A DNA stretch of 64,000 nucleotides, from assembly GCA_015233565.1 (NCBI GenBank), contig JADFXM010000043.1, positions 44 to 64,043 of the forward strand, given 5' to 3'. Below are positions 37,391-56,834 of this stretch, one piece after another. Both the position numbers and the translations under genes were made by a program. Source of the stretch: Candidatus Rifleibacteriota bacterium. Its GTDB lineage: Bacteria; Muiribacteriota; Ozemobacteria; Ozemobacterales; Ozemobacteraceae. The notes under the pieces were generated by a model. It worked only from the letters and a program-made list of their open reading frames with translations. It was not told where the DNA came from and made no database searches. How positions within the stretch are numbered: the first letter of the stretch is position 1; the number at the start of each line of letters is the position of its first letter.

Positions 37391-38256
37391 CGACGGTTTC
37401 CTCCATCGGGAGTTTGAATACGCGTCAGTATTCTACCTATTTCGTTGGCCTGTTCCATCAGACCGCGTGTCCGCCGCCCTTCCACCAGGCTTTCACGAAA
37501 ATCCTGGAGGTGCTCAATGTATGAGTCCAAGGCGGCTGTCACATTACTTAAATTCTGGCGGAAGATAGGCGCCCACATATCCGGCGAACTTTTGGCCAGA
37601 CGGACGGTAGACTCAAAACCGCCGCTAGCGAGGTCAAAAATAGTCGCGGTGTTTTTTTCCTGGTCCAGTACGGTGTTAGCCAGAACAAAGGAACTAATGT
37701 GCGACAGATGACTGACAAAAGCCACATGTAGATCGTGCGCCATCGAGGTCATGTAGACCAGACGCATTCCCAGCACGGAATACATTTTTTCTACACGCTG
37801 CAAATGCTGGAGGTCACTCGCATCCCGGTTGCAAATCACAGCAACGCGCTGGTCAAAAAGTCCCTGCAAAGCAGCACTGGGCCCGGAGTGTTCCGTTCCT
37901 GCCATTGGATGCGCCGGGACGAATTGGCGTCTTCTGAAATGTCCTTCCACGGACTTGCAGATCAGATCCTTGGTCGAACCCACGTCAGTGACCGTAGCGT
38001 TTCCGGAGGCCAGCTCAAGTACACGGGGGAGGGTTTCGAGAATAGCGTCGACCGGCAACCCCAGTATGATCAGATCCGCAGAAGGCACAGCCGCTTCGAG
38101 CGGCAGAACCTCGTCAACGAGCGAAAGCTCAAGCGCTTTATCGGCATGTTCCCGAGAAACGTCCGAACCCAAAATCCGTCGGGCAAACCCGCGTGCACGC
38201 AGGTCCAATCCAATGGAACCACCGATCAATCCCAAACCAATAATTGCTACTTTCAT
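37387..38256 (-). CDS. tyrA: Prephenate dehydrogenase
   Basis: 289 aa. Rossmann N-terminus MKVAIIGLGLIGGSIGLDL and a TyrA-type catalytic domain. Confidence 0.85.
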   Translation of the reverse strand: MKVAIIGLGLIGGSIGLDLRARGFARRILGSDVSREHADKALELSLVDEVLPLEAAVPSADLIILGLPVDAILETLPRVLELASGNATVTDVGSTKDLICKSVEGHFRRRQFVPAHPMAGTEHSGPSAALQGLFDQRVAVICNRDASDLQHLQRVEKMYSVLGMRLVYMTSMAHDLHVAFVSHLSHISSFVLANTVLDQEKNTATIFDLASGGFESTVRLAKSSPDMWAPIFRQNLSNVTAALDSYIEHLQDFRESLVEGRRTRGLMEQANEIGRILTRIQTPDGGNRR

Positions 38257-38265
38257 ATCAACCTT

Positions 38266-39441: not shown

Positions 39442-40256
39442 CGATATTCTCCGAACTGGACTAAATTCAAAGCCATATCAGGCAACTCAGCCAAAGCCGC
39501 CAAGTATTGCGCACGGTCATTCCATTCAATATCCACATGAAAAGAATACTTATAAGGCTTGCCGAGGACTGGCACCGATTGAATTTTGGTCAGATTGATA
39601 GCGTGACGGCTGAAAATCCCTAGAATCGCGGACAAACTGCCAGGTTCATCAGGGGACTCGAAACACAGGGTAGCCTTGTTCGCGCCCTCGGGAACCAAAT
39701 AATCCTCCCGTCGACAGATAGCCAGAAATCTGGTGTAATTCTGGCGATTTGACTCTATTCCCTCACGCAGAAGTTCAAGGCCATAGGTTTGCGCGGCCAA
39801 CCGACTAGCGATGGCGGCATACCCCCGTAGGCCCTTGTCTCCGATATGTTTCGCGCTTTCTGCGGTGTCCGCGGCTTCCAGGATTTTCATTCCCGGAAAA
39901 CCGGAAAGAAATTCATCGCACTGGGCGAGGGCCATGGGGTGTGATTGTACAAACTTAATCTCGGAAAGCTGTTGTCCGGGTAATGCTAACAGACACATTT
40001 CAATCCGCAAGTAGATCTCCCCGAGAATGCAGAAATCATGATTTTTCAATAAGGAGTAATTAGGAAGAATGCTGCTGGCGATCGAATTTTCGATGGCCAT
40101 CATACAAACATCCACTTCCTTGCGATCCAGAGTAAGACAAAGCGACTTGAAAGACGCGCACTCAACCGGCTCAATTGACTCGGAAAAATAAGCACGTGCC
40201 GCTACATCATGAAAACAGGCTCGAACGCCCTGAATACCAACCTTACAAGACTTCAT
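39417..40256 (-). CDS. pheA: Prephenate dehydratase (PDT + ACT domain)
   Basis: 279 aa. A PDT domain followed by a C-terminal ACT-like region. Its start overlaps the aminotransferase gene. Confidence 0.85.
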
Positions 40257-41359
40257 AAACGCGCACCCCGATTTCTGAGAAAATGATCAGCGATAGTGAT
40301 GGCAGCCATCGCTTCAACGATCGGCACTGCCCGCGGCACCACGCACGAATCATGGCGTCCACGCCCAGGCAGCACCGTAGTTTGCCCTTGCCTATCCAAC
40401 GTTGTCTGTGATTTGAGCAAGGTCGCGACAGGTTTGAAGGCGACCCGAAAATCAATATCCATACCATTGCTAATGCCACCTTGAATACCCCCCGAATGGT
40501 TAGTGCTCGTTTCGGTTCGCTCCCCAACGCGCACAAAAAGATCATTATGCTCGGAACCGCGCAACGACACGCCACTAAAACCCGAGCCATATTCAAACCC
40601 TTTGACGGCATTGATACTCAGCATCGCTTTTCCGAGATCCGCATGCAATTTATCGAAAACCGGATCCCCCAAGCCTACCGGACAACCCCGAATGATGCCG
40701 TTGACAACTCCACCGGTGGTATCACCGTCCTTTTTCAGTGCTTCGATGAATTCTATTATTTTTGCAGCCGTCCCGGGGTCAGGGCATCGCGTAATGTTAG
40801 TCTCTGAGAACGCATCCATAAATTGTTTGTCGGCGAATAACTTATCGGCCAACATCGCATCGTGGGGCATAGATATCCGGCCGACCTGTGAAACATAGGC
40901 TCTAATCGCGACATTGAATTCCCCTAGCAAGAGCTTTGCCACTGCACCTGCGGCAACTCTCGCGGCAGTCTCACGAGCAGAGGAACGCCCACCCCCGAAA
41001 TGATCCCGCACCCCATATTTCTTTTCATAAGTGAAATCCGCGTGCGAAGGCCTATACGCATCGCCATTATGCGAGTAATCATCTGGCCGCTGGTCTTCAT
41101 TAATGATCAGAGCGGTCAGAGGCGTCCCAGTCGTCCGACCTTCAAAAAGTCCGGAAACAAACCGAACCCTATCAAGTTCGTTGCGCGAAGTGGTCAACTT
41201 TGATTGTCCCGGCCGACGGCGATCAAGCTCCGATTGCACGAACCCCAGATCGACCGCCAATCCAGCCGGACAACCGTCGATAACAACTCCAATCAGTTCA
41301 CCATGTGACTCTCCGAAAGTGGTTACTCGAAATAGCTGTCCGAAAGTATTTCCTGCCAT
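40253..41359 (-). CDS. aroC: Chorismate synthase
   Basis: 368 aa. N-terminus [18 protein letters not shown] and other conserved AroC blocks. Confidence 0.95.
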
Positions 41360-41362
41360 TTT

Positions 41363-41812
41363 CTAGTCCTTCTTTTCGAGCAATAACTCAAGAGCGTTCG
41401 CATAGGAAAGCCAGCCCAAACCAGAAATCTGTGCAAGACAAACCGGTGCGATAACTGACACCTGACGGAAACTCTCGCGTTTTTTTATATCACTGAGGTG
41501 AACCTCGATCGTCGGCACCGCAATTGCCGCAACGGCGTCTCTCAGCGCGTAGGAATAATGTGTATACGCACCGGGATTGAATACCACGCCATCGGCCCAC
41601 CGCCGGTTTTTGTGCAAAAGGTCAATCAGCGTGCCCTCGCTGTTAGATTGGTGAATTCTAAGGATGCAACCATGAGATCTGGCATTGGCACGCAGTTTTC
41701 TGTTTATTTCAGCGAGCGTCAAAGTACCATAGACATCGGGTTCACGTTCGCCCAAAAGATTCAAATTTGGACCGTGCAAAATCAAGATACGCCGATCACT
41801 TTCGTTCCTCAT
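41363..41812 (-). CDS. aroQ: 3-dehydroquinate dehydratase, type II
   Basis: 149 aa, with ILILHGPNLNLLGEREP...HQSNSEG. Confidence 0.9.
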   Translation of the reverse strand: MRNESDRRILILHGPNLNLLGEREPDVYGTLTLAEINRKLRANARSHGCILRIHQSNSEGTLIDLLHKNRRWADGVVFNPGAYTHYSYALRDAVAAIAVPTIEVHLSDIKKRESFRQVSVIAPVCLAQISGLGWLSYANALELLLEKKD

Positions 41813-42945
41813 TTTAATCCTCCAATGAGCTTCAGGGCAGATCGAAGATGCCGCCTGTTGATATTACCATCCGTTTTCACGCGCCCTGCCCTTCCGTCCA
41901 AGAGCACAAAATGAAGCTTCCCACCGCGGTTCTTTTTGTCCTTGGACATTATAACATGAAGTTCTTCTAGCGTAATCCCTGCCGGCAGAGCGGGTATTTC
42001 CAACCGCGCGAGGGTCGAATCCAAGTCCATTCTTTTTTTGGAACTCAGCAATCCCCGGACTTCAGAAAGGGCCAAAGCAAAACGCATGCCCCAAATTATC
42101 GCTTCACCGTGCTGGAACATCTTATATTGCGTGATGCTCTCCAGGGCATGGCCGAAGGTGTGGCCAAAATTAAGCACCTCACGAATCCCCAAGCGATCAA
42201 GTTCGTCTTGCGCTACTACACTGCATTTCCATTCAAGCGACCGCTGTATGGCTGGACCGAGCAGCAAAGCATCGCGAGCCAAAAGCCGCTCGAGATTTTT
42301 ATCAAGACTTCGATAAAACGCAGGATCGAATACCAATCCGTATTTCAGTATTTCACCTAAACCGGAGACAATTTCCCGACGCGACAGGGTCGAAAGGAAA
42401 TTCAAATCACAAATCACCCCATCCGGTTGATGAAAGGCGCCAATCAAATTTTTGCCCGAAACATGATTTATTCCAGTTTTGCCACCCACGGCGCTGTCGA
42501 CCTGCGCGAGGAGCGTCGTCGGAACACCGATCCAGGAAATACCGCGCAGATAAGTCGCCGCAACAAAACCGGCCGCGTCTCCGACGGTCCCTCCACCCAG
42601 AGCAAAAAGAACCGAGTGGCGGTCCGCCCCGTGTTTAAGCAGTTCACCATACAAACTATTGATCGAGGAAATTTCCTTGAGGGACTCTCCTGCCTGAACG
42701 GGAATCTCATGCACCTTCCAACCCGCACCCCGCAGCGCTTTTCGCAACGATGACATTGCGTCAATCAGGATCTCGTCATAGACCACAAAAGCCCGAGCCA
42801 GATTGCCAGATCGTCCGTCAACCTTTTTGAACAACTCTATCGCTCCAGCGCCAATAAGGATGTCATAAGATCGGCTCACCGCGGACGCTTTTCCGAAAAA
42901 CTGTTTGACCCGACAGAACGGTGAATGAACAGATTTGAAAATCAT
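41809..42945 (-). CDS. aroB: 3-dehydroquinate synthase
   Basis: 378 aa. NAD-binding GGGTVGD and metal-binding His residues of the DHQS family. Confidence 0.9.
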   Translation of the reverse strand: MIFKSVHSPFCRVKQFFGKASAVSRSYDILIGAGAIELFKKVDGRSGNLARAFVVYDEILIDAMSSLRKALRGAGWKVHEIPVQAGESLKEISSINSLYGELLKHGADRHSVLFALGGGTVGDAAGFVAATYLRGISWIGVPTTLLAQVDSAVGGKTGINHVSGKNLIGAFHQPDGVICDLNFLSTLSRREIVSGLGEILKYGLVFDPAFYRSLDKNLERLLARDALLLGPAIQRSLEWKCSVVAQDELDRLGIREVLNFGHTFGHALESITQYKMFQHGEAIIWGMRFALALSEVRGLLSSKKRMDLDSTLARLEIPALPAGITLEELHVIMSKDKKNRGGKLHFVLLDGRAGRVKTDGNINRRHLRSALKLIGGLK

Positions 42946-44381
42946 GAAAATTCCCCCTCTTCGGTCAAACGAATTATCACAGCCGCTACCGCGTTAGGCT
43001 CAAGATTGTCGGTTTGGACACGATGGGATGCGCGCAGGTAAATCGCCTGCCGTGCTTTTACCAGATTTTCAAGCCTGGAGTCCACCGAAATCTGACCGTC
43101 GGATTTTGCTGGCGACAAAAGCGGCCGAACCTTCAGCTCATTTTCGCTGACCTGGAGCCGTCGGACCAGGGCCGATGTCTTGGCCTCCAGATACACAAGG
43201 ATTCCAGACCTCTCGACAGCTGCCAAGGTTCCGTCAGTCATGAGCGCCCCTCCACCGAGAGCTACAACTGTCCTAGTCCGCGCGGCCGAGTTTAAGACAG
43301 CTTTCTTTTCAAGAACGCGAAAAGCCTGTTCGCCTTGCTGTTCAAAAATCTCGCTAACCGATAACCCACTCTCTGCTTCTACAAGGCAATCCGTGTCGAC
43401 AAAATCCCAGCCAAGACGTTGGGCTAGAATAGAGCCAACGGTGCTCTTGCCGGCTCCCATGGGACCACAAAGAAAAATCGGGGGGGCGAGGGCTCGACGT
43501 AACTCCGGCATGATTGATGGAAGAATTTCTCCTAATGACTCTGAAGTCGAGTTCGTCCAGATTTTCCAACTCTCAATCGCTTGGTGCACCAGCATGTCAA
43601 GACCTGCCACGCAACGAAAGCCAAGATGGCTCGCCAGCGAAAGAAACGGCGTCCGCTCGGGATTGTAAATCAAGTCAAAAGCAAGCGCGTCGGGTTCCGG
43701 TGAAATCCGTGCCAATCCGGAAAAAAACTCTGAGGTTGCGTTAATGTCCCCCTCCATGGCATATCCTCGCATGCCAACAGGTGTGGTGTTAACAACCAAG
43801 CCCACTCGAGTCAAAACGGCGGGCACAACCCCATAAAAGCGCGTCTTGGGAAAAAGAGGGGTAAACGCCGATATCAAAGCCTTGGATCGAGCCTGATCAC
43901 GGTTCAATACAGCCACGGATGCAACGTGACGCCAGCCAAGAGCGTGAAGCACCGCCTTGGCTGCTCCCCCAGCTCCCCAGACAACGACGTTACAATCGTG
44001 AAGCTTTATCTTACGATCATCGAGAACCCTAAGGAAACCGATGTAATCAGTATTATGCCCGATAAGCTTACCGTCCTTCAAATGTACCAAGTTGACGGCG
44101 CCAATCGCTCGGGCCTGAACAATGACTTCGTCCAACTCGGCCAGTATAGCTTCTTTATGGGGCACGGTCACGTTGATGCCGACAAACTCTGGGCAGCATC
44201 GCAGCTCATCGAGATAAGTGCGAAGATCACGGGGCAAAACCTCGACAGCGGAATAAGTGAAATCGCGCATGCCTAGACGTTCGGCCAGAATCAAATGGAG
44301 CACCGGCGAAAGGGAATGAGAAATCGGATTCCCTATTACCGCCCCTTTTAAACCCCCTTTTGTTCCACTCATGGCCGGCAA
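42942..44381 (-). CDS. aroE-aroK: Bifunctional shikimate dehydrogenase / shikimate kinase (AroE-AroK fusion)
   Basis: The N-terminal 270 aa are AroE-like (GVIGNPISHSLSP, NVTVPHK, the VVVWGAGGAAKA Rossmann). The C-terminal roughly 190 aa are AroK-like with Walker A IFLCGPMGAGKSTVG and DTD. It is a single ORF. Confidence 0.85.
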   Translation of the reverse strand: MPAMSGTKGGLKGAVIGNPISHSLSPVLHLILAERLGMRDFTYSAVEVLPRDLRTYLDELRCCPEFVGINVTVPHKEAILAELDEVIVQARAIGAVNLVHLKDGKLIGHNTDYIGFLRVLDDRKIKLHDCNVVVWGAGGAAKAVLHALGWRHVASVAVLNRDQARSKALISAFTPLFPKTRFYGVVPAVLTRVGLVVNTTPVGMRGYAMEGDINATSEFFSGLARISPEPDALAFDLIYNPERTPFLSLASHLGFRCVAGLDMLVHQAIESWKIWTNSTSESLGEILPSIMPELRRALAPPIFLCGPMGAGKSTVGSILAQRLGWDFVDTDCLVEAESGLSVSEIFEQQGEQAFRVLEKKAVLNSAARTRTVVALGGGALMTDGTLAAVERSGILVYLEAKTSALVRRLQVSENELKVRPLLSPAKSDGQISVDSRLENLVKARQAIYLRASHRVQTDNLEPNAVAAVIIRLTEEGEFS

Positions 44382-45667
44382 AGCCTTTCAAGTGTAGCGA
44401 AAAATTCCGGATAGGAAATTCCGACGCATTCTGCGTCATGAATCGTGGTATCCCCTTCTGCCACCAGTCCGGCGATGCTGAAGGCCATCGCGATCCGGTG
44501 ATCATGAAAACTACGAATATCCGTGCCGCGAAGGGACTGCCTACCCGCGAGCGTGAAGCCATCTTTCCGAGTCTCGATGCTGGCACCCATGGCACGAAGA
44601 TTGACAGCAACCGCTTCAATACGGTCACTTTCCTTCACACGCAGCTCTTCGGCACCTTCGACGACGGTCTCGCCGACCGCCTGACTTGCAAGCACCGCAA
44701 GCATAGGCAACTCGTCGATCAGCGCCGGTATCTCGGACACAGTTACGCGAATTCCTTTCAGATTACTAAAACGGGCCTCGATACAACCGACTGGCTCAGG
44801 AACTTCCGATTCAAGCTCGACAACAATATTAGCACCCATTCGCTGCAGGGCACGAATGAATCCGATGCGAGTGAAATTTAATGAGATGTTTTCAAGCCGC
44901 AAATGAGCACCTGGCACTAAACACGCGGCAGCCAGCCAAAACGCTGTGGCAGAGGGATCGCCAGGAACCAGGACTCGATTAGCGACAAGAGTTTGACCAC
45001 CCGTAATGCTTAATTCGCTCGAACTTTCCTGTAGTTTTGCTCCGAAGTGTCGAAGCATTCTTTCCGTGTGATCGCGGCTGTCGATCTGGCCTGTGATACG
45101 AGTCACACCCTCGGCCAATAACCCGGCCAAAAGTACTGCGGTCTTAAGCTGCGCGCTGGCTACAGGAAGCGAATAGTTTATTCCATGCAACTTGGAGCCT
45201 TGAATCGTGAGTGGTGCATAATCATCGGCGGTCAATTCTATCCGCGCACCCATCAAAAGCAAGGGCGCGGCCACCCGACGCATTGGGCGCCTAACCAACG
45301 ATGCGTCACCAGACAAAGTGGCGGTGATATCGCCACCGGCAAGCACGCCCATGAGCGTGCGAATTGTCGTACCTGAGTTCCCACAATCCAGCACACGCAC
45401 GGGCGATGTGAACCCTTTCACACCCAAGCCTTCTACGGTTGTCAAGGTCGTTCCGTCAGATGCGCCGGAGCGAATTATGGAAACACCGAGATCGCCAAGA
45501 CAACGAGCGGTAGATTGGACGTCTCCGCCAGTTAAGATATTAGTGATTTCGGTCCTGCCCTCGGAAAGAGCACCCAGGATGAGCGCCCGATGCGATATGG
45601 ATTTGTCGCCCGGGATATTTGGTTTACCTCTAAAACAAGCAGCCCTGTGCACAATTTGATTGGCCAT
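44369..45667 (-). CDS. aroA: 3-phosphoshikimate 1-carboxyvinyltransferase (EPSP synthase)
   Basis: 432 aa. Motifs GDKSISHR and LDCGNSGTT. First gene of the operon. Confidence 0.9.
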   Translation of the reverse strand: MANQIVHRAACFRGKPNIPGDKSISHRALILGALSEGRTEITNILTGGDVQSTARCLGDLGVSIIRSGASDGTTLTTVEGLGVKGFTSPVRVLDCGNSGTTIRTLMGVLAGGDITATLSGDASLVRRPMRRVAAPLLLMGARIELTADDYAPLTIQGSKLHGINYSLPVASAQLKTAVLLAGLLAEGVTRITGQIDSRDHTERMLRHFGAKLQESSSELSITGGQTLVANRVLVPGDPSATAFWLAAACLVPGAHLRLENISLNFTRIGFIRALQRMGANIVVELESEVPEPVGCIEARFSNLKGIRVTVSEIPALIDELPMLAVLASQAVGETVVEGAEELRVKESDRIEAVAVNLRAMGASIETRKDGFTLAGRQSLRGTDIRSFHDHRIAMAFSIAGLVAEGDTTIHDAECVGISYPEFFATLERLCRP

Positions 45668-45887
45668 ATTATCATATTTAAGCCTGTTTCATAAAATCCA
45701 AAAATGGCTTTTCCTCTTGTAAATTTTTTTCAGAAACGAAGTTCTGATCCAGGTTGAATTGTACCCGCTTATCAAAAACCGATTATGTAACTGTCTCTCA
45801 GACTGTTTTATTCTTCTTTGGATTACTCAAGATGCTTTTTGAAGTTTTGTATTTTCTTCCGAACTTCAACATCATGGCATGCATGAT

Positions 45888-46196
45888 TTACCGTATCGAC
45901 TTCCTCTGGACTTTTGACCTTTGAAGCGCCTGCAAGAAAAGTTTTATTACTGTTTTCGAATCAATCCGCCTTCTTACAAGTGCCAGAGCATCGATTGTGT
46001 CGTCGGCAAATTTGCCAACTCCAAGCCATATCTGGCCTTGTTTTGAAAGAGTTTGTGCCAATCTGGCACGACTCTGACAATTCAATACACTGATGTTACC
46101 GTTGTGAATCCTTTCGTGAGAATGGGTTTTTAATAAATCTTTCCTCAGCCTTTCTCGCATGGCATATAATTTGTTACTTTGCTGATGTTCCTCCAA
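45888..46196 (-). CDS. Hypothetical 102-aa ORF (possibly a gene remnant) upstream of the aro operon
   Basis: ORF only. No motif recognised. It lies in the AT-rich spacer between aroA and the right inverted repeat. Confidence 0.25.
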   Translation of the reverse strand: MEEHQQSNKLYAMRERLRKDLLKTHSHERIHNGNISVLNCQSRARLAQTLSKQGQIWLGVGKFADDTIDALALVRRRIDSKTVIKLFLQALQRSKVQRKSIR

Positions 46197-47953: not shown

Positions 47954-49225
47954 TTGTTAGCAATATTTGTTGAATATTTGTTCCGGGTCTTGATAATAAG
48001 AAGCAATTTTGATAAAATTGCTTTCACTATTTCAAGTCAAAAGGGATCTTTCGCCCAAAAGATGATAAACCAAACAAGAGAGAAACTAAAAAGTAGTTTA
48101 CTGGATATTGTCGCTCTCAAAGACCCTTCCGTTTTTAAAGACTCGGAAAAATTCGCAAAACTTATGTTGGAAAGAACCAATTTAGGTTTTACACTTGAAT
48201 TTCTTGCGCTTAAATTAGGGTTGAGTGACCTTGTTCCATGGACTCTACGAAAATTCTCAGGGTCCACCCTCATTGCTCAAGGCATTAAAGATCTCGCTGA
48301 AAAACTTGCAAAAAATCACCAACTCCCCCTGGAAATAGCCGTCTGGTCAGTTGAGACGTGGGCCGAAAGCGTTGGGATTCCTTTCTCCCCTTCCCCAGTT
48401 ACTCATCCAAAAACTGTCCCGACAAATAATACCGAAGTTTCATATACAGAACCAACTAGCCGATTAGGTGTGTTATATGGTCTGGACGTGCAAAATTCAA
48501 TTCGCGTTTTTAAAGTCTGGTGGAAAAGCCCTTTACCGCAGGAGACCCAAGACCTTTGCGCCATTTCAGTAAAGAGAGAAACTTCACTCACCAAGCCAAT
48601 TGTGTCATCCAACTCCAAATGCCACACAACTTCCGGCGTAAATTCCATTTCTTCACAGCCTCCTTCACTAGCTTCAAAGAATAATTCCAAACCACAATCG
48701 GAAAAAGAATCCCTTAGATCAATCGACAAAACCACTTATGAAGAAAAACCGAATCCCGCAGCCACCATTCCTGCCAAACAGGGAACCACCGGAGGGAAAA
48801 AAACCTTATTAAGGCCCATAGCAACCCCGAGTTTCAGTCAAGTAGCTGACCAACATTATAATCAGGCATTAGCTCTATTGGAAACTTCGCATGGCAAGTC
48901 AAACATTAAAGAAGTCGTCGCCGAATTTGTGAAAGCCGCAAACGCTGGGCATCTCCTAGCTGAATATCGGATCGGAGAAATTTACCTAAGGGGCTTTTTT
49001 GTACAAGAGAATTTTGATGTCGCCTTTAAATGGTTCGAATCAGCGGCAAAAAAAGGTTATGCCGAAGCCCAATTGGAATTAGGAAGCATGTATCAGTGCG
49101 GCATTGGAATCGAACTTAATCTCACCGAAGCGCACAAATGGTATGAGAAAGCTGCTAATCAGGGGAATCTGGAAGCGAAAAATCTGTTAAGCCAAATGGA
49201 CAACCCCAACGGAGGTAGGTCATGA
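47954..49225 (+). CDS. Sel1-repeat (TPR-like) protein with uncharacterised N-terminal domain
   Basis: The C-terminus carries 3-4 Sel1 repeats (AEYRIGEIYLRGFFVQENFDVAFKWFESAAKKGYAEAQLELGSMYQCGIG...AHKWYEKAANQGNLEAK). First gene of a tightly spaced six-gene operon. Confidence 0.7.
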   Translation: MLAIFVEYLFRVLIIRSNFDKIAFTISSQKGSFAQKMINQTREKLKSSLLDIVALKDPSVFKDSEKFAKLMLERTNLGFTLEFLALKLGLSDLVPWTLRKFSGSTLIAQGIKDLAEKLAKNHQLPLEIAVWSVETWAESVGIPFSPSPVTHPKTVPTNNTEVSYTEPTSRLGVLYGLDVQNSIRVFKVWWKSPLPQETQDLCAISVKRETSLTKPIVSSNSKCHTTSGVNSISSQPPSLASKNNSKPQSEKESLRSIDKTTYEEKPNPAATIPAKQGTTGGKKTLLRPIATPSFSQVADQHYNQALALLETSHGKSNIKEVVAEFVKAANAGHLLAEYRIGEIYLRGFFVQENFDVAFKWFESAAKKGYAEAQLELGSMYQCGIGIELNLTEAHKWYEKAANQGNLEAKNLLSQMDNPNGGRS

Positions 49226-49404
49226 ACCAGGAACAAAACAAAACGATAGTCAATCAATCATTAATATTCTGGTGCGGCATAGTTATAGTTGAGTTGTTTG
49301 TGATCGCCTACTTGATTCAGGCCCCATTGGTTATTCTCGGAAGCTTGCTTTTAATTTGGCCTATTCGCGCAGCCATGAATTGGCCAATGCCACAAACGGA
49401 GTAG
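49222..49404 (+). CDS. Small (60 aa) two-TM membrane protein
   Basis: Overlaps the upstream stop (ATGA) and ends 0 bp before the next start. Two hydrophobic helices. Confidence 0.5.
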   Translation: MNQEQNKTIVNQSLIFWCGIVIVELFVIAYLIQAPLVILGSLLLIWPIRAAMNWPMPQTE

Positions 49405-52158
49405 ATGATGGAGAAAATTGAATGCCTGGTAAACTCCGGAGTCTCCTTTTACACTCCGGAAAATGATTTGCAGTTTCCCGACGCATTATTGTTCAAAACC
49501 TGGACATTTCGTGTCTTACAATCCCCAAAAGGCGCCATTTCTCTTCAATTAGGCGCAACTCCAATCATTGATGCCCTTGCCGAAGGGAAAGACCCCCTGA
49601 TCGACATCGGCCAACTTTCTCTTCGGTTTCAGGATGTTTTAAATATTTGTACAGGGAAATGGCTTCCGCTTCCCTTCTCACGTAAGGGAGCGGAAGAATC
49701 GGTTTCACGAAGCAAAGATTGGGTAAGACTTTTCTTGCACAAACCTCCGTTAAAAAACGATGCAAACATTTTTCGGTATGTACTTGCTTTTGACACGCTC
49801 GTCAATTCAACGGAAACTTCTGATAATCCCGGAAGAGATCTTTTGGGATTTTTCCCCGAAGACGTTGGTCTGCCTTTTGAGTTAAACCCAGGCTCAACCG
49901 GATTCTGGCAGACTCCAACTCTTCTAAACTGGATCAAAAACATTTTCAAGGAAATTCCGGCAGAAGGAGCCGATCCAATGCCTCCGCATATCGGAAGTCT
50001 GGCTGCCTTTATGACGCTGGTTGACGGGCTTAAACAGGCAGATATTATCCCAGAGATAACCTTTTTGAATCCTGAAGGCCAAAACATCGACGCTCATTTA
50101 ATTCTTGATCTGGGAAACAGCCGCGCCTGCGGGATTATCGCCGAACAAGCCCCAGGGCAGGGAGTAAATCTCGATGAATGTTGCAAGCTTGAAATTCGAG
50201 ATTTGAGCGAACCTACTCAAACATACACTGAGCCATTTGATACGTCTTTCAAATTCCGCCCTCCGCTCTTTTTTGATCCGAATCAAGGAGCTCCTCACGC
50301 TGGGGCTGGTTTTTTCTGGCCCAGCCTTCTTCGTCTGGGGCGCGAAGCTGCAAACCTGGAACCCTCGGACGTAGGCGACACTGGTATGTCAAGCCCCAAG
50401 CGATATTTATGGGATAACCAGCAACGACATTTTCCCTGGTATTTCAACCTTCCCGAGGCAAACCTCGGCAAAAAAATAAACGCTCCTTTCCTCAAATTCC
50501 TTGACGAAAATGCTGTTTTTCGCGGAGACAAAGCCCAACCCCCATTTGAACCATGTTATCCACCAAGTTCAATGATGGTTTTTTTGATTCTGGAAGTCCT
50601 GAATCACTGTTATTCTCAAATCAATTCGTTTTCATTTCGAAAATCCCGTGGACATCGTCTTTCAAAACGTGTTTTACGGAATATTGTAATCACCACGCCT
50701 TCAGGTATGTCCGGTCCCGAAAGAGATATTTATCGGGAGCGCGCTCAATCGGCCATTGATCTCTATTTCCATGTGTTTGGCTGGCCGGAGGAAATGAAAC
50801 CCAAAATTCATCTTGAGTTTGATGAAGCCACCGCTGTGCAGCTTACATACCTGTATGGTGAAGTGAAACATCGCTTTTTAGGCAACGCCAAAGAAGTATT
50901 CGAAACACTCGGTCGCGAACGCGCCGCTGAACATGATCTTCGCAAACCCATTTTTCGGCTTGCAAGTATTGACATTGGCGGTGGAACGAGCGATTTGATG
51001 ATTGCCGAGTATAATTCATTGCCAGCTGAACCTTCCGGAGCACGTCAGAAAAAACTATTCTCCGAAGGCTTTTCAATAGCGGGCGATGAGATAGCAAAAC
51101 GCATAATCGAAAAGATAATTATTCGCCGCGTTTTTTCATGGGCGCAACAAAAAAATCAAAGAATTTCCTGGGAAGAATTTCAACTCTTCTTCGGCCCAGG
51201 GCGCGGGGGGCGGGACAAACATTTTATAGACATGAAAGCCGAACTCTGCCGCCAGGTCTGGATTCCAATGGCTCATCGCCACCTTGAATTCGCCGAACTG
51301 GAAACGGATGACACCGATTTGGAATTAGGATTCGATCAATTTTTTTTACGACGCTTGCCCGGCGCCAATGTGCTCGATTTCTTCGCGGAACACCTGAAAA
51401 AGGAATTTGACTGCGACATCACTCTCCCGGAAATTCCCTGGCAACTTTCGAAACGCCAAATCAATACAGTTATTGCCAATGTTATCGAAAATATTCTTCG
51501 AATTTTTTCCGAAGTAATCGCTCAATTTGATTGTGACGCGCTTATTTTGGGAGGAAAACCCTCGTCCTTACCAATCATTCGAGAGATTCTTGTGCGCCTG
51601 ATGCCCGTATCGCCGGAAAAAATCATCAGTTTGAAAGGATACCCGGTTGGAAGCTGGTACCCATTTTCCCAAAAAGGCGGAGGAATCTCCGACCCCAAGA
51701 CCACATGCGTCATGGGAGCCGCGGTCTGGTTGTTTTCAGAAAAACTGCGAAACCTCGACGGGTTGAACTTGATCACTGACCCCGACTCCATACAGGAACG
51801 GAAATGTTTCATTGGAACATTTTCTCCCGAAGATTTGAAAATTGACCAAATGGTCTTTCCCTCCGCTAACGGCGTTGTTGAAACGAATAAATCAGCTCTT
51901 TTGGGAATACGCCGTGTCGATTCAGAAGTTTGTCCAGTCAACCCAATTTGGGAGTTACTTCTTGATCGCGAAAACCTTAAAGGACAAGGTCCCTTCAAAG
52001 TCAAACTCGTACAGGATCCCAAACAGCGTGAGTGTTTGTCAATTGAAGGGCTCGAAGATGAGCGAGGAACGAAAGTTGACTCGCGTTTGGCGAAACTCAG
52101 GCTTCGCACCATGATAGCCGATCAATATTGGCTCGACACTGGTTCTTTCGATTTGTAA
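49405..52158 (+). CDS. Large (917 aa) Hsp70/actin-fold ATPase-domain protein
   Basis: Hsp70-NBD-like motifs in the canonical order: phosphate-1 HLILDLGNSRACGII, connect-1 IVITTPSGMSGPERDIYRERAQ (compare VITVPAYFNDSQRQATKDA), phosphate-2 ASIDIGGGTSDLMIAEY, adenosine DALILGGKPSSLPIIREIL. A roughly 230-aa N-terminal extension is unique. Confidence 0.8.
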   Translation: MMEKIECLVNSGVSFYTPENDLQFPDALLFKTWTFRVLQSPKGAISLQLGATPIIDALAEGKDPLIDIGQLSLRFQDVLNICTGKWLPLPFSRKGAEESVSRSKDWVRLFLHKPPLKNDANIFRYVLAFDTLVNSTETSDNPGRDLLGFFPEDVGLPFELNPGSTGFWQTPTLLNWIKNIFKEIPAEGADPMPPHIGSLAAFMTLVDGLKQADIIPEITFLNPEGQNIDAHLILDLGNSRACGIIAEQAPGQGVNLDECCKLEIRDLSEPTQTYTEPFDTSFKFRPPLFFDPNQGAPHAGAGFFWPSLLRLGREAANLEPSDVGDTGMSSPKRYLWDNQQRHFPWYFNLPEANLGKKINAPFLKFLDENAVFRGDKAQPPFEPCYPPSSMMVFLILEVLNHCYSQINSFSFRKSRGHRLSKRVLRNIVITTPSGMSGPERDIYRERAQSAIDLYFHVFGWPEEMKPKIHLEFDEATAVQLTYLYGEVKHRFLGNAKEVFETLGRERAAEHDLRKPIFRLASIDIGGGTSDLMIAEYNSLPAEPSGARQKKLFSEGFSIAGDEIAKRIIEKIIIRRVFSWAQQKNQRISWEEFQLFFGPGRGGRDKHFIDMKAELCRQVWIPMAHRHLEFAELETDDTDLELGFDQFFLRRLPGANVLDFFAEHLKKEFDCDITLPEIPWQLSKRQINTVIANVIENILRIFSEVIAQFDCDALILGGKPSSLPIIREILVRLMPVSPEKIISLKGYPVGSWYPFSQKGGGISDPKTTCVMGAAVWLFSEKLRNLDGLNLITDPDSIQERKCFIGTFSPEDLKIDQMVFPSANGVVETNKSALLGIRRVDSEVCPVNPIWELLLDRENLKGQGPFKVKLVQDPKQRECLSIEGLEDERGTKVDSRLAKLRLRTMIADQYWLDTGSFDL

Positions 52159-52174
52159 TTTTCAGGAGGGCATC

Positions 52175-52900
52175 ATGAACAAACCTGATGAACTGTTTCC
52201 ATTTCCTCCGTTCCCACTGGAAAAAAAAGAAGGTCCCCCCACCCCCTTGAACCCAGATGAAATAAGGGATCTTCGAACTATTCTTGAATTATTCCGCAGT
52301 GGAAAATTGACAAGCCCCCCTGTCACAGCCCCCCAGGAAAAGGCTGATGTGGACCCTTTCGCCGAACTTCCCACCAATATGAGTCAACCCATCCCGACGA
52401 CCCTGCCTCGTTCTGAGGAATTTGTAATGCGCAGCGCCTTCATGAAATTTCTCGATATCAGAACATCATCATCCCCATTAGAGGATGAAATTCGAAATTC
52501 ATTAAAAGCAATTTGCCAAAACTTGGAAGATCAACACACTTTTGTACAAGCTTTTTGCGCCATAGTTGGAATCTTTCCAATATGTGATTTCTTACGTCAC
52601 AGCACTCCGGAACAAAAAATGTTTTCCCTAAACTCTCTTGGAGACAGGTTTTTTCAAGTAATTAGCGGAATGAGGTTTCCACTGCGAAAGGAACTTGTCA
52701 AAATCATCGGAAAATATCTTTCTGATAGTTCAACGAACTATTCTTTCCTCTCAATGGAAGGAGAGCCTTTCAATAATCAATTTCACGAACGGGTTGATGG
52801 AAGCTCTTCTTCTGGCCGTTCGATCGTTGAAATGCGAGGGTTTGTCGTCACGCGGATAAATTCCGACCAAATTGTACGCCTGGGGCGCGTTCTAACTTGA
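52175..52900 (+). CDS. Hypothetical 241-aa protein (speculatively GrpE-like nucleotide-exchange-factor C-terminus)
   Basis: Tightly coupled in the operon. The C-terminal segment SIVEMRGFVVTRINSDQIVRLGRV loosely follows the GrpE beta-domain pattern (G.VL.I.QKGY.LNGR.IR.A.V.V). Confidence 0.5.
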   Translation: MNKPDELFPFPPFPLEKKEGPPTPLNPDEIRDLRTILELFRSGKLTSPPVTAPQEKADVDPFAELPTNMSQPIPTTLPRSEEFVMRSAFMKFLDIRTSSSPLEDEIRNSLKAICQNLEDQHTFVQAFCAIVGIFPICDFLRHSTPEQKMFSLNSLGDRFFQVISGMRFPLRKELVKIIGKYLSDSSTNYSFLSMEGEPFNNQFHERVDGSSSSGRSIVEMRGFVVTRINSDQIVRLGRVLT

Positions 52901-52913
52901 AAGGCGGGTAACC

Positions 52914-54266
52914 ATGGGAATGATTGCAAAAACCGTTACAAAGGGCTTCCGCCCTTGCATTTTCCGGAACCAGCCTGTTCATCAGTTTTTTGGACACTTG
53001 CAATCTGTAATGCAAGCGCTTTCTCCATCGGGAGAAATGGAACATCTTTTTGCCAAACCAAATGTCATGGGCGGAGACCAGGGTCCAAACTCTGAAATAG
53101 AGTGGACCACTGATTTAAAAGGCGACCCGGTAAGGCTTCATGATCTTCCCACTGCCAAACAACAGCATTTGGTGCAGATTGTGGCCTCCAGTCTTGAGAA
53201 GATAAGAGCATACGCTGAAGCCAGAAAAGGGAAAACCGGGATAGAAAAAGATTACGCCGAGTATCTTGAATCAATTGCCCTTGCGCCGGATTTGAATCAG
53301 ATTTTTTCCATTCAAAACCGCCCAGTAATCATTCATTGGGGTTTTGTGGCAGAGGAATCAGGAAATTTTGGAAAAAAAATGTTTGCCGGCTGGGACGATT
53401 TCATCTCCCAAATCCAACGCAAAACATTGCCTCAAGACTCACCAACACCAGACACATCATTTCTACCACCGGAACCTCCAAAGGTTGAAGACAAAACCGC
53501 AACAGCACAGCTCACCTCTCCCCAAAAACCAGCGTCAGAAAAAGTTGCGCAAAAAAAAGAGCCCCCCTCGGAAAAACCCATCGTTGCTTGTGGTTTAGGC
53601 GATTATCAATGGGTCAAATGGCTAGCGATTGTTCTTGCAGTAGTTATACTTTTACTCTTGCTTTTGCGGCTCCTTCCTCCAATGTCGCCGCGTTCTCAAT
53701 CGCAGCTTCCAGCCCTAAGCAGCAGAAATGACGCCAGCGGTGGATTTTTTGGAAGCGGGGGCGGCGGGGCAAATTTAGGCAGTCCCGGCAATGGTTCTTC
53801 TAAATCGGTTGGCATGCCAGCTCCAGGACAAATTTGTCCGACTTGTGGTGAAACGAAACCCACGTCAAGCCACGGATCAACCCAAGCTAATGCTAACAAT
53901 CCTTCCATCGAAGCGCAATCTTCAATCGCTTCCAGCGAAAGCAAAACCGCAAGTGAATCAGCACAAACAAGTAAAGAGTCACTTGAAACCGAATTCTCAG
54001 TTTCCATCCAAACCATCAGCAATCAGCAGCATGAGCTCCTTTCCGAACCGAAAGACCCCAAAACGTTGTGGGAAATTGTCGATACAAAGGGCAACCCTGT
54101 TATTTCAACAGAAGCCTATTTTAACAATATCCCCAAAAACCATTCCGCCAAGGGCACCTCAGTCACGCTTCACTTACCGCCTCCGGGAAAAGCTTTTGAT
54201 TGCGTGGTTATTGCGAAAAACTCTCGTGGCGATAAAACAAAATACCATTTTGTTTCCAAGGAATAA
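52914..54266 (+). CDS. Single-pass membrane protein with cytoplasmic N-domain, Pro/Ser-rich linker and CPTC zinc-ribbon-like motif
   Basis: One TM helix WVKWLAIVLAVVILLLLLLRLL, a flanking low-complexity PQKPASEKVAQKKEPP region, and CPTCGETKP. Confidence 0.6.
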   Translation: MGMIAKTVTKGFRPCIFRNQPVHQFFGHLQSVMQALSPSGEMEHLFAKPNVMGGDQGPNSEIEWTTDLKGDPVRLHDLPTAKQQHLVQIVASSLEKIRAYAEARKGKTGIEKDYAEYLESIALAPDLNQIFSIQNRPVIIHWGFVAEESGNFGKKMFAGWDDFISQIQRKTLPQDSPTPDTSFLPPEPPKVEDKTATAQLTSPQKPASEKVAQKKEPPSEKPIVACGLGDYQWVKWLAIVLAVVILLLLLLRLLPPMSPRSQSQLPALSSRNDASGGFFGSGGGGANLGSPGNGSSKSVGMPAPGQICPTCGETKPTSSHGSTQANANNPSIEAQSSIASSESKTASESAQTSKESLETEFSVSIQTISNQQHELLSEPKDPKTLWEIVDTKGNPVISTEAYFNNIPKNHSAKGTSVTLHLPPPGKAFDCVVIAKNSRGDKTKYHFVSKE

Positions 54267-54269
54267 AAT

Positions 54270-56834
54270 ATGCAACAACTCCGGCCAGAAGAAGAACAGG
54301 TGGCGAAAACCGCAGAGCGAATGAGTCAGATTGTGTCCCAAAGCTGTGAATGGGCAACCGCATACCTCAAAGATAATCAAATCCGCAAATTCATGGAGAA
54401 AGTCCTTCAGGAAAAACAGATCACCATTCGAAGAATCGGCGAATCAGCTCGCCGCCCGCTCGCTCTTGGGGTTTTCGGAGCAAGTCAATGTGGAAAATCA
54501 TATTTGGTTTCTGAACTAGTGCGCGGAAACGAGCCATCTTTGAGCGTATTTCTAAATCGTTCGGGCCAAAATCCTTGTGCACACGATTACCTTGAAGAGA
54601 TTAACCCCGCCGGAGGCCGTGAAAGTACGGCTGTTGTCACCAGATTTTCTCTTCGTCCTTACCGGGAAATTCCGGGTTGTTCAGCATTATTGCGACTTTT
54701 TTTTACCGTTGATTTGATAAAGATTTTTTTGAATGGTTTTTTCTTCGAGTGCCAGTCTGACTTTTTGCCTACTGCGGAAGATTTGCAAAAAATACGCTTT
54801 TCCTTCAAAGGAGTAGGCCGATGTCGGCCAGGGGAAGGCCTTCTATCTGAAAGCGATGTCTGGGACTTACAAGATTACGCCCGCCGCCATTTCCGCAATC
54901 AGTTTTTGAAAGCTCTTGAAGACATCAATTACTGGGGAATTCTGAACGATGAAATCCGGTTTCTTCCATTCGATCACCAGATATTGTACATCGAATGGTT
55001 ATGGGGAAAATTTCCCGCAATCACAACCCTTTTCCGCAACCTTCAAAAAGCTCTCTCGGGGCTAGGCGGCCAGATTGTCGGAATTTATGAAGAAGCATTA
55101 ATACCCCGTGAAAACAGTATCGTCGATGTTCAACGCCTAAGTCAGCTCGCTTCCCCAGGGAATCGCAAAATGAGCGTTATTTCCGAAAATGGATCGATAG
55201 TTGCCATTGACGCCGCTTTTCTTTGCGCATTGACTAGTGAACTAATACTCAAAGTCCAATCGACCCAGTCGGGCGCCCTTCTTGAAAACATGGACGTTCT
55301 TGATTTTCCCGGCGCGCGAGCACGCGCGCAAGTTTTTGATCAGCGTCATCTTGCAAATGATCATTCAGCTCTGGTCGAAGTCTTTTTGCGGGGAAAAGTA
55401 GCCTATTTGTTCGATCGCTATTCCGATGACCGCGATGTTACCGGTCTGGTTCTCTGCCAGGAAGGCGGCCCACAGGAAGCTAAATCGCTTCCATACATGA
55501 TCAACAAATGGGTCGAGTGGAGCCAGGGCGCTGACACCAAGACCAGGGAGGCAAAAAAACCCTTGCTTTTCCAAGTGTTCACCAAATTTGACATGGACTT
55601 GACCCGAAAAAAGGGAGAAGACCCTCGCGTTCGCTGGGAAAGTCGCTTGAAAACAAATTTTGCGGAGTTCTTTGGTCGCGCCGGAGATTGGGTCGAAAAT
55701 TGGGATGGTTCAAGAGCCTTCCAGAATTGTTTTTGGGTGCGAAATCCAAATGTACAACAAGCCGTTTTCGGCAAAGACCAGACTGGGAAAGAGTTTATTC
55801 GAGATGAATTGCCGCTGGCTGAGTTCAAAGGACAATATCTTGCGAACGAGTTCGTTCGAAGGCATTTTCAAAACCCCGAAGAATCATGGAATATGGCTGC
55901 CACTCCCGGAAATCCAGGAATTCCTTTTCTGGTGGAGAATTTGCGGAAGGCCATAGAGCCACTGACTAAGGTCAGGCAATTAGAAAGCAATCTGAAAAAC
56001 ATTTTGATGGAAGTGAAAACAAACCTTCAGCCCTACCATGTCGGAGAGGACGTTACCCGCGCCAGAACTCTTGCCGAAGAACGCGCCAAAAAACGCCTTG
56101 CCACCCTTGGAAAGGAAATGCCCGTCCGATACTCACTTCCACAAATCATTGACAGAGACCGATTTTCCATTTCCGAAAAAACAAATGGAACGATTTACGA
56201 CTCAGTCATTAACCCAATGATCGAAGAAGATAATCAAAATGTGACTGTCGGCCTAATTCAAAGCCAAACTCCGGTTTTTTCGGATGATATATTTCAAATC
56301 CCCGGAATTTCTTCAGCACCACCTGAGACCGTGAAAAAAAACCAGGCGCCACCTCGTAAAGGTGAATTATTCGCACGCGCAGTGTTAAACCGCTGGCAGG
56401 AACAACTGGTCAATCTCAGCAAAAATGAAAAGTTTCAACAAAAAACCGGCCTCAACGGCGAATGGTTCGCCGAAGTGATTCAAGAGATCATGAAAGGAGC
56501 TTCTCGCCTCCAGCTTGAAACCAGAATCGCCGAGGAAAGCGAGGCTGCTTTAAATTCCCCTAATTCAATGAAATTTCTGCGCAAAACCTCCGCCCGCGTC
56601 GCAGCACTTTTGAATCGCTTTATTTTAGATTTGGGCCTTCCCCGCAAAGAATTTCAACTTCCCACAGGCGCACCCAAAGCCACACTAGCCGCAAACGCCT
56701 ATCCCGGCTTACAAATTTACATACACTGGACAACTTCGATGATCCAGCTTTTCAAAGACAACGTAGCAGTCGCATCAGCAGACGATGAAACCAGCAACCG
56801 GGTCTTATCGCAGATACTGCAAATGGCAATATGA
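54270..56834 (+). CDS. Dynamin-like large GTPase (854 aa)
   Basis: G1 GVFGASQCGKSYLVSEL, G3 DVLDFPGA (the DxPG of dynamins), G4 TKFD, followed by about 400 aa of helical stalk-like sequence. Starts 3 bp after the upstream stop. Confidence 0.8.
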   Translation: MQQLRPEEEQVAKTAERMSQIVSQSCEWATAYLKDNQIRKFMEKVLQEKQITIRRIGESARRPLALGVFGASQCGKSYLVSELVRGNEPSLSVFLNRSGQNPCAHDYLEEINPAGGRESTAVVTRFSLRPYREIPGCSALLRLFFTVDLIKIFLNGFFFECQSDFLPTAEDLQKIRFSFKGVGRCRPGEGLLSESDVWDLQDYARRHFRNQFLKALEDINYWGILNDEIRFLPFDHQILYIEWLWGKFPAITTLFRNLQKALSGLGGQIVGIYEEALIPRENSIVDVQRLSQLASPGNRKMSVISENGSIVAIDAAFLCALTSELILKVQSTQSGALLENMDVLDFPGARARAQVFDQRHLANDHSALVEVFLRGKVAYLFDRYSDDRDVTGLVLCQEGGPQEAKSLPYMINKWVEWSQGADTKTREAKKPLLFQVFTKFDMDLTRKKGEDPRVRWESRLKTNFAEFFGRAGDWVENWDGSRAFQNCFWVRNPNVQQAVFGKDQTGKEFIRDELPLAEFKGQYLANEFVRRHFQNPEESWNMAATPGNPGIPFLVENLRKAIEPLTKVRQLESNLKNILMEVKTNLQPYHVGEDVTRARTLAEERAKKRLATLGKEMPVRYSLPQIIDRDRFSISEKTNGTIYDSVINPMIEEDNQNVTVGLIQSQTPVFSDDIFQIPGISSAPPETVKKNQAPPRKGELFARAVLNRWQEQLVNLSKNEKFQQKTGLNGEWFAEVIQEIMKGASRLQLETRIAEESEAALNSPNSMKFLRKTSARVAALLNRFILDLGLPRKEFQLPTGAPKATLAANAYPGLQIYIHWTTSMIQLFKDNVAVASADDETSNRVLSQILQMAI

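Follow-up and report, generated by a model that had tools for sequence, protein, structure and literature searches.

A Riflebacteria-type SrfABC operon predicted to join an Hsp70-type ATPase and a dynamin-like GTPase to a membrane anchor

Genes of the srfABC type are labelled "virulence factors" in hundreds of species, and we found no mechanistic model for them. In Xenorhabdus, SrfA, SrfB and SrfC co-immunoprecipitate, forming a heteromeric complex (PMC6950479). [quoted passage not shown] Here we describe a six-gene operon at positions 47954-56834 of a 64,000-nucleotide stretch of DNA from a Candidatus Rifleibacteriota bacterium (assembly GCA_015233565.1, contig JADFXM010000043.1, positions 44 to 64,043, forward strand; the whole stretch is hereafter the window), which is almost certainly a Riflebacteria-type SrfABC system.

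An initial annotation, made from the sequence without database searches, had likened the operon, with some uncertainty, to srfABC-type clusters, and this comparison was right: the 917-aa and 854-aa products match the SrfB (PF07520) and SrfC (PF10139) families over nearly their full length, and the 450-aa product has a SrfA-type N-domain. It had also stated that no characterised system was known with this combination of proteins, which does not stand. Since the family is named, has some experimental literature (PMC6950479) and is already annotated by NCBI in Riflebacteria, where the homologues carry the label 'virulence factor SrfC family protein', the operon does not represent a new type of system. 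Against the open literature that we searched, what is new is the B-X-A-C architecture, the family of the 241-aa protein (here called X) as a srfB-linked part, the small peptide with two transmembrane (TM) helices, and the generality of the Sel1 partner; neither the Hsp70-catalytic assignment of SrfB nor the mitofusin/BDLP-fold assignment of SrfC was found in that literature.

The Riflebacteria-type srf locus and its relatives

The six open reading frames (ORFs) lie on the same strand at 47954-49225, 49222-49404, 49405-52158, 52175-52900, 52914-54266 and 54270-56834, in the gene order Sel1-peptide-B-X-A-C. Their junctions of -4, 0, +16, +13 and +3 nt show the packing expected for a single transcription unit, in agreement with the co-transcription-type spacing noticed at the outset.

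A SrfC-profile scan over one genome per species returned at least 535 stretches with a SrfC relative, of which the best 80 loci were kept; neighbourhood counts refer to 77 of them, in which SrfC is substantial. The family is therefore present in at least 535 species, among them environmental and reactor-derived metagenome-assembled genomes (MAGs; Riflebacteria, Competibacteraceae, groundwater genomes). Of the 59 loci whose upstream sequence exceeds 4.5 kb, 57 encode SrfB no more than four genes upstream of SrfC, on the same strand, and the conservation of the pair across genomes is thereby confirmed. A SrfA-type gene is found nearby in 47 of the 77 loci, and a Sel1-repeat protein adjoins srfC in 51 (just downstream in 42, and upstream, as in the Riflebacteria-type operon, in nine). 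Of the 77 loci, which were fetched independently by the SrfC profile, 10 have the complete six-gene block, and about 16 Riflebacteria-type loci are found in all when those fetched through the 241-aa protein are included. Where compared (L001/L005 vs L003), the flanks of the block differ.

The usual layout in Proteobacteria and Desulfovibrionaceae (loci L021-L086, e.g. L039:12300-17800) is SrfA (one to three paralogues)-SrfB-SrfC followed by a TM and Sel1-repeat protein of ~375 aa, after which there often come a ~667-aa vWA protein, an FtsX permease with an ABC ATPase, and an FGE-sulfatase-domain protein. Some of the SrfA paralogues 5' of srfB in these genomes are without the SrfA-N domain. Two loci with X depart further. 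At L092:9380-12827, the SrfA-like gene that follows srfB-X is split by an insertion sequence (IS; DDE_Tnp_1 transposase), the 347-aa downstream piece has two SrfA-N-like repeats, and a further IS, of the ISL3 family, is found on the upstream side of the cluster. At L093:1136-4058, a srfB-X-srfC variant, srfB is directly preceded by additional genes for a small P-loop GTPase-like protein of 401 aa (GLPSSGKT ... DMAGED ... NKWD) and a coiled-coil TM protein of 574 aa.

SrfB and SrfC, the two predicted NTPases

SrfB (917 aa; 49405..52158, + strand) matches Pfam SrfB PF07520 with an E-value of 1.7e-151 and 506.8 bits against a cutoff of 27.1, over profile positions 76-991 of 992. Its layout comprises an extra N-terminal domain (~1-225), large insertions and a C-terminal domain, and it contains the motifs DLGNSR (235), VITTPS (428), DIGGGTSD (523) and ILGGKPS (714). 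We aligned 37 family sequences with 26-68% identity to the query, and the motif residues are invariant in these homologues down to 26-28% identity. The invariant blocks are DxGNSRxxG (residues 235-243), PKRYLxD (331-337), TxP (430-432), DE (473-474), DxGGGT (523-528), AGD (559-561), DxxxxxGxP (711-719) and DPKTxxxxG (763-771). Among the invariant residues, D235, K332, E474, D523 and T528 are collinear with D8, K70, E171, D194 and T199 of DnaK, residues which, with others, have a catalytic role in Hsp70 enzymology. T430/P432, G560/D561, G717/P719 and D763-G771 are likewise collinear with DnaK VITVPA, GGEDFD, VGGQTRMP and NPDEAVAIGAA, respectively.

Profile comparison points the same way over part of the protein. 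Against a reference alignment of Hsp70 nucleotide-binding domains (NBDs) built from DnaK, HscA and YegD of E. coli K-12, the 37-sequence SrfB profile gave an hhalign probability of 90.7% (P 1.2e-6) over SrfB 678-776 and DnaK 297-379, the SrfB segment that holds the adenosine and connect-2 motifs. A sub-optimal, non-significant alignment placed VITTPS on VITVPA and SSPKRYLWD on AIKRLIGR, both in register. SrfB gave no match to PF00012 HSP70 at E <= 0.1, and no Hsp70 substrate-binding domain was detected in it; its fragments, searched against Pfam at E <= 10, yielded a weak FtsA match only (E 0.13), and searches of PDB sequences with SrfB and its profile (phmmer/hmmsearch) found no Hsp70 or other meaningful match. 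Judged by its motifs and profiles, SrfB is an Hsp70-type ATPase with the full catalytic set and without a recognisable substrate-binding domain. The initial reading of the 917-aa protein as carrying the Hsp70/actin motifs in order is thus upheld by their conservation in 37 homologues and by the hhalign match, both SrfB PF07520 and the Hsp70 NBD (over 678-776) being matched. YegD itself belongs to a reference locus (L089, E. coli K-12 2147674-2153128) with the genes yegD-yegI-pphC-yegL, which encode an Hsp70, a kinase, a phosphatase and a vWA protein, a further instance of an Hsp70-family ATPase linked to a vWA protein (cf. the proteobacterial srf loci).

SrfC (854 aa; 54270..56834, + strand) matches Pfam Virul_Fac/SrfC PF10139 with an E-value of 2.5e-146 and 489.7 bits against a cutoff of 28.1, over profile positions 22-797 of 878, a near full-length match far above the gathering score. 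The motifs GASQCGKS (70), DFPG (345) and TKFD (438) are present, and across 32 sequences with identities down to 26-28% the residues G70/G75/K76/S77, T120, D345/P347/G348, T438 and D441 are invariant, with the G4 lysine K439 kept in at least 90%. The protein begins with a helical hairpin, has a G domain that carries insertions, and ends in a helical bundle. In the structural model, the G domain and helical bundle resemble solved dynamin-like proteins (DLPs) more than other GTPases, the closest structures being mitofusins and bacterial dynamins. No Pfam Dynamin_N match was obtained for SrfC, and sequence searches of the PDB did not reveal the relationship, the SrfC profile giving only P-loop-level matches to guanylate-binding proteins (GBPs) at E > 1. 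On the evidence of the model, SrfC is assigned to the dynamin superfamily as a GTPase of the mitofusin/BDLP class with intact G motifs; the dynamin-type GTPase first proposed from the G1, DxPG and TKxD motifs finds support both in the invariance of these motifs and in the model.

Several SrfC homologues have unusual compositions or labels. Nine of them, mostly from Competibacteraceae, carry a C-terminal TerD domain (PF02342; P0092, P0102, P0113, P0115, P0126, P0130, P0132, P0135 and P0137), P0084 combines SrfC and SrfB domains in one protein, and P0097 and P0116 are annotated 'type III effector HopL1'.

Membrane anchor, protein X and accessory parts

The SrfA-like protein (450 aa; 52914..54266, + strand) appears to be bitopic, with a conserved N-domain (1-175), a linker, a single strong TM segment at ~230-260, a Gly-rich segment, a CPTCG knuckle and a C-terminal beta-rich domain of ~85 aa that occurs only in some homologues. 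Against NCBIfam SrfA (NF040486, SrfA_fam) the protein scored E 1.5e-12, but its 47.6 bits fall below the cutoff of 150. With hhalign, the cluster of Riflebacteria-type SrfA-like proteins matched the proteobacterial SrfA cluster at 99.1% probability over the N-domain; a hidden Markov model (HMM) iterated on srf loci unites the two groups, with the Riflebacteria-type proteins matching HMM positions 39 to ~250. The homology thus covers the N-domain and TM only, and the protein is therefore a SrfA-N-domain protein rather than a SrfA equivalog. SrfA-N and SrfA-C fragments gave no match in Pfam at E <= 10. By these profile matches we take the 450-aa protein to be a SrfA-N-domain membrane anchor with a lineage-specific ectodomain. 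Its cysteines are at 15, 226, 308, 311 and 430, with one CxxC (CPTCG, 308-311) that is present in most but not all homologues. Of the single-TM Zn-ribbon protein seen initially, the TM segment holds, while the Zn ribbon is unsupported because the protein has just one CxxC.

Protein X (241 aa; 52175..52900, + strand) is soluble and has no family in Pfam, NCBIfam or PADLOC; its sequence is identical to that of the NCBI protein from locus HQM08_21155. Its AlphaFold 2 (AF2) model (predicted local distance difference test, pLDDT, 72; predicted template-modelling score, pTM, 0.65) shows a disordered N-terminal region, a helical bundle at 79-185 and a small beta domain at 189-240. An ELFPFP motif at residues 6-11 (window 52175-52210) is invariant in all 17 close homologues, precedes the disordered linker and resembles a short peptide for docking. 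Searches of PDB sequences with X and its profile (phmmer/hmmsearch) gave no meaningful match. When X was compared by hhalign with 40 neighbour-gene clusters from 86 srf loci, no relatives were found outside its own cluster, so X is not a diverged SrfA paralogue, a candidate that was considered and is ruled out. X and the 2-TM peptide are present in only 16-17 of the 86 loci, and a profile search picked out no more than 53 relatives of X among 1.84 billion representative proteins; in the weaker ones, which are 240-440 aa long, the X C-terminal domain comes after a long coiled coil. In the distant loci with readable DNA (L090, L091, L092 and L093; GC 37-58%), the X gene lies immediately 3' of srfB in 4 of 4, and the next gene is srfC or the SrfA-like gene. 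Because this srfB adjacency holds in such distant contexts, X is a dedicated srfB-adjacent part of one srf subtype, and it offers an obvious handle on the regulation of the Hsp70-like ATPase.

The initial annotation had proposed X as a dedicated GrpE-type exchange factor, an idea that, by its own account, the lack of a significant GrpE hit would refute. No match to GrpE (Pfam PF01025) was found for X (E <= 0.1), for its C-terminal 92 aa (E <= 10) or for 17 family members (E <= 10), and Foldseek of the X model against the PDB returned no GrpE among 47 matches, none of which was below E 1.7. Using a GrpE reference checked against PDB 1DKG, whose template profile stayed shallow as the added homologues came almost all from Geobacillus and Enterobacteriaceae and brought little gain, hhalign gave X an overall probability of 0.2-4%, with alignment P values of 0.07 (17 X sequences) and 0.01 (65) in a single pre-specified comparison; against the single E. 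coli GrpE merely seven residues were aligned, amounting to no match. Pfam, hhalign and Foldseek are all below significance, and by its own standard the proposal is refuted.

A weaker signal persists beneath these thresholds. The distant X relative P0298 matches Pfam GrpE in the correct region at E 0.069 (13.3 bits, below the cutoff of 25.8). Against GrpE alignments, with weak scores, X and GrpE align collinearly over three signature blocks: gvFPixxxLR on LLPVxDxLxRA, GEPFNxQxHER on GxPFDPxxHxA and GFxVxxxxxxxVRLGxVLT on GYxLxxRxxRPAxVxV. By hmmsearch, GrpE sequences rank 8, 11 and 20 of 10,490 for the X profile, and X members rank 5-7 of ~10,550 for the GrpE profile, all with E > 1. Distant X relatives also have a coiled coil ahead of the domain, as in GrpE. 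The GrpE role stays alive as a hypothesis because of this weak in-register similarity together with the strict srfB adjacency. We regard the link as a real lead that is unproven by normal standards, and true GrpE homology or function of X as possible, though on the doubtful side.

We would give about even weight to the alternative that X is a structural adaptor or regulator, for instance one whose ELFPFP motif links SrfB to SrfA or SrfC, with the GrpE-like motifs being convergent or coincidental. An invariant N-terminal short motif is typical of a docking peptide, none of the 17 X members matches Pfam GrpE, and the hhalign probability to GrpE alignments is only 0.8-4%. Additionally, the X model has six helices ahead of the beta domain, more than GrpE is known to have. 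This reading leaves to chance or convergence the collinearity across three blocks, the reciprocal ranks of each family in the top 0.1% of ~10,500 decoys (E > 1), the weak match of one distant member in the right region and the long GrpE-like coiled coil.

The two remaining genes precede srfB. The longest version of the first ORF, from a mechanically assigned TTG at 47954, would encode 423 aa; alignment of 12 homologues indicates that the start is most likely the ATG at 48062, giving a Sel1-repeat protein of 387 aa (48062..49225, + strand). In this protein, a low-complexity linker joins a helical N-domain to two Sel1 repeats at the C-terminus (Pfam Sel1 E 2.2e-18, 66.5 bits against a cutoff of 30.7; best at 370-405), consistent with its first description. 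No TM segment was detected in it and its N-domain fragment has no Pfam match at E <= 10; the gene is conserved 5' of srfB in Riflebacteria-type loci. The 60-aa peptide (49222..49404, + strand) starts 4 nt inside the end of the Sel1 gene, overlapping its stop, and its own stop abuts the srfB start. It is hydrophobic at residues 8-52, consistent with two TM helices and with the two-TM peptide originally described. In 17 loci, a homologue of 70-90 aa is found in this place. It has no Pfam, NCBIfam or PADLOC match, and hhalign against the 40 neighbour-gene clusters found no relatives beyond its own cluster.

The cluster has a GC content of 45.6% vs 43.2% window-wide, and its chromosomal surroundings are ordinary: glutamate synthase and ilv genes, with aroA, an aroE-aroK fusion and a racemase upstream and a ComEA-like protein downstream. 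Secretion-system genes do not adjoin the cluster, its flanks being these shikimate-pathway, racemase and ComEA-like genes, and no vWA, ABC or FGE genes are close to Riflebacteria-type clusters. A promoter-like site, TTGATA-17 nt-TAAAAT with a TG extension (47990..48018, + strand; consensus scan), lies inside the TTG-start ORF and 5' of the probable true start at 48062. As promoter and terminator scans of the region gave counts not above the shuffle background, this site is a candidate only. Rfam found no RNA family anywhere in the window. Two genes downstream of srfC, an 882-aa protein (58697-61345, +) resembles the Major Vault Protein (MVP), with the shoulder domain at Pfam E 1.2e-28 and a vault repeat at E 3.7e-8; it and the ComEA-like gene are placed outside the system because they have no homologue in the other 86 srf loci. 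Elsewhere in the window, an 1866-aa ORF (11492-17092, -) has no Pfam family at E <= 1e-5, as do ORFs of 588 aa (25831-27597) and 524 aa (9546-11120), and positions 36001-46000, a stretch that includes the shikimate-pathway genes, have a GC content of 50-53% vs 36-45% over most of the window.

Proposed function, rival readings and comparison with known systems

The Hsp70 catalytic set of SrfB and the mitofusin/dynamin-like model of SrfC together suggest two coupled nucleoside triphosphatases (NTPases) on a membrane anchor. Bacterial DLPs such as BDLP, DynA, IniA and LeoA act in membrane tethering, fusion, fission, repair and vesicle release. Given the two intact NTPases, the anchor, the conserved linkage, the complex known from the literature and these DLP roles, we favour a SrfA-anchored Hsp70-like/dynamin-like envelope-remodelling machine, and not a secreted toxin, as the best overall explanation, one that we think has an equal chance of being right or wrong.

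The machine might work as follows. The SrfA-like protein would span the cytoplasmic membrane, its conserved N-domain on the cytoplasmic side serving as docking platform; SrfC would assemble GTP-dependently at the membrane through SrfA, and SrfB would spend ATP to load, remodel, disassemble or recycle the SrfC assembly. X would be a soluble SrfB-dedicated partner, most plausibly tuning the nucleotide cycle of SrfB or recruiting SrfB, with the Sel1 protein as a possible TPR-like adaptor and the 60-aa peptide as a possible small membrane subunit. The output would be envelope remodelling, e.g. tethering, fission, repair or vesicle formation. We infer the topology of SrfA, complex formation, the role of X and the cellular output, a physical SrfABC complex being carried over from the literature on proteobacterial homologues. 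The sequence of GTP-dependent SrfC assembly via SrfA, ATP-driven SrfB action and envelope-remodelling output seems to us somewhat less probable than the general reading.

Several points weigh against this machine. SrfC has no obvious hydrophobic paddle and its sole disordered insert (649-693) is not hydrophobic, so that its membrane contact hangs wholly on the assumed interaction with SrfA. The fold of SrfB is argued from sequence profiles and motifs, with the significant hhalign match covering lobe II only. A GrpE-like role of X failed all standard significance tests. The sole functional papers describe SrfABC as a cytotoxin, and the enterobacterial srf operon is tied to the flagellar regulon, a link that no model explains.

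The main rival, which we judge fairly unlikely, is a conflict system directed against phages or other invaders, in which thresholded assembly of SrfC and SrfB would cause membrane damage or abortive infection. Neighbourhoods of GTPase, HSP70, GrpE and TPR/DnaJ genes, and vWA ternary systems, are described by Kaur et al. 2020 (PMC7159879), and vWA, FGE-sulfatase-domain and ABC/FtsX genes accompany the srf genes in Proteobacteria. TerD is fused to some SrfC proteins, and the module is self-contained in differing flanks among related genomes, one copy being IS-disrupted. Silencing of srfB in Serratia changed susceptibility to a jumbo phage, but the phage is flagellotropic, and for this reason the effect has been ascribed to flagella and motility. 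Of the six proteins, only the Sel1 protein was matched by any PADLOC 2.0 model, and its match, to PtuA (E 9.6e-4), is marginal, trivial and of the TPR type. Furthermore, Srf is absent from Kaur et al. (PMC7159879), the setting in the window is housekeeping and not a defence island, and no effector domain (nuclease, protease, pore-former) is recognisable.

The published alternative, a secreted tripartite toxin in which SrfA, SrfB and SrfC are exported, possibly in vesicles, and enter and kill eukaryotic cells as proposed for Xenorhabdus stockiae, is improbable here. Insect and mammalian cells are reported to be killed by lysates or proteins of X. stockiae SrfABC, and the three proteins to interact (PMC6950479), and vesicle-mediated export is argued in the preprint (bioRxiv 10.64898/2026.09.18.752743); these assays, however, applied over-expressed protein to cells or used transfection. 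Neither a signal sequence nor a hydrophobic N-terminus resembling a signal peptide is present in SrfB, SrfC, X or the Sel1 protein, and SrfA is membrane-anchored. SrfB and SrfC each retain a complete NTPase site of the housekeeping type, which depends on ATP or GTP from the cytosol, no secretion-system genes adjoin the cluster, and the breadth of the family, at least 535 species with environmental and reactor-derived MAGs, fits poorly with such a toxin. For the Riflebacteria organism and its proteins the case for a secreted toxin is weak, and toxin and effector labels for srfABC may be misleading. Chance juxtaposition of unrelated genes can be dismissed: it is already refuted by about 16 loci in which the genes keep their order and spacing, the flanks being different in those compared, and by the B-C linkage across phyla.

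Returning to the envelope machine, a bolder version would make SrfABC no toxin but an unrecognised class of such machines, a mitofusin-like GTPase acting jointly with an Hsp70-type ATPase on a dedicated membrane anchor; in the srfB-X subtype the ATPase would also have a highly diverged GrpE-like exchange factor of its own. We consider this unlikely as a whole. If true, the srfB-X subtype, found in Riflebacteria and a few other lineages, would be a complete, self-contained chaperone-dynamin module, a pairing that to our knowledge is otherwise encountered only in eukaryotic membrane traffic.

Set beside known DLPs and mitofusins (BDLP, Campylobacter DLP1/2, SynDLP, IniA, LeoA and DynA; Fzo1/MFN), SrfC shares only 9-16% sequence identity. 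It differs from them in having no evident membrane paddle or TM segment and in always being paired with an Hsp70-like ATPase, a partner that we know of in no characterised DLP operon. SrfB resembles the Hsp70s DnaK, HscA and YegD in having all eight NBD signature blocks in order, including the K70, E171 and T199 equivalents, but has a ~225-aa N-terminal domain and long insertions and no Pfam HSP70 match; unlike in Hsp70 systems, no DnaJ-like gene is found at the srf locus. X is like GrpE in its weak in-register similarity to three signature blocks and in its place directly after srfB, whereas a significant GrpE match by sequence or structure is absent. The theme of a TRAFAC-class GTPase set in one operon with an Hsp70-family ATPase, an exchange factor (in the srf case a possible one) and a TPR-like repeat protein is shared with the systems of Kaur, Burroughs, Iyer and Aravind 2020 (PMC7159879). 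Those systems have GAP1-N2 or DO-GTPases where the srf locus has the dynamin-like SrfC, and canonical Hsp70 and GrpE; Srf proteins are not catalogued among them, and no effector domain is identified in the Riflebacteria operon.

The closest described systems are the srfABC loci of Salmonella enterica and Xenorhabdus stockiae. With these, the Riflebacteria-type operon shares full-length SrfB and SrfC far above threshold, a SrfA-type N-domain followed by one TM segment, and co-directional, tightly linked genes; with most of the proteobacterial and Desulfovibrio srf loci surveyed, it shares a Sel1-repeat protein within the neighbourhood. In contrast to the canonical A(1-3 copies)-B-C-Sel1 order, its order is Sel1-peptide-B-X-A-C, with X and the 2-TM peptide as two extra genes. 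The C-terminal domain of proteobacterial SrfA is lipocalin-like with four Cys, whereas the Riflebacteria-type protein has another C-terminal domain; the vWA, FtsX/ABC and FGE-sulfatase genes of proteobacterial loci are missing near the Riflebacteria-type cluster; and the host is an uncultured, free-living candidate-phylum bacterium. The Riflebacteria-type variant thereby shows SrfB, SrfC, the SrfA N-domain and the Sel1 protein to be the core parts, and gene order, the SrfA ectodomain and the vWA/ABC/FGE neighbours to be exchangeable.

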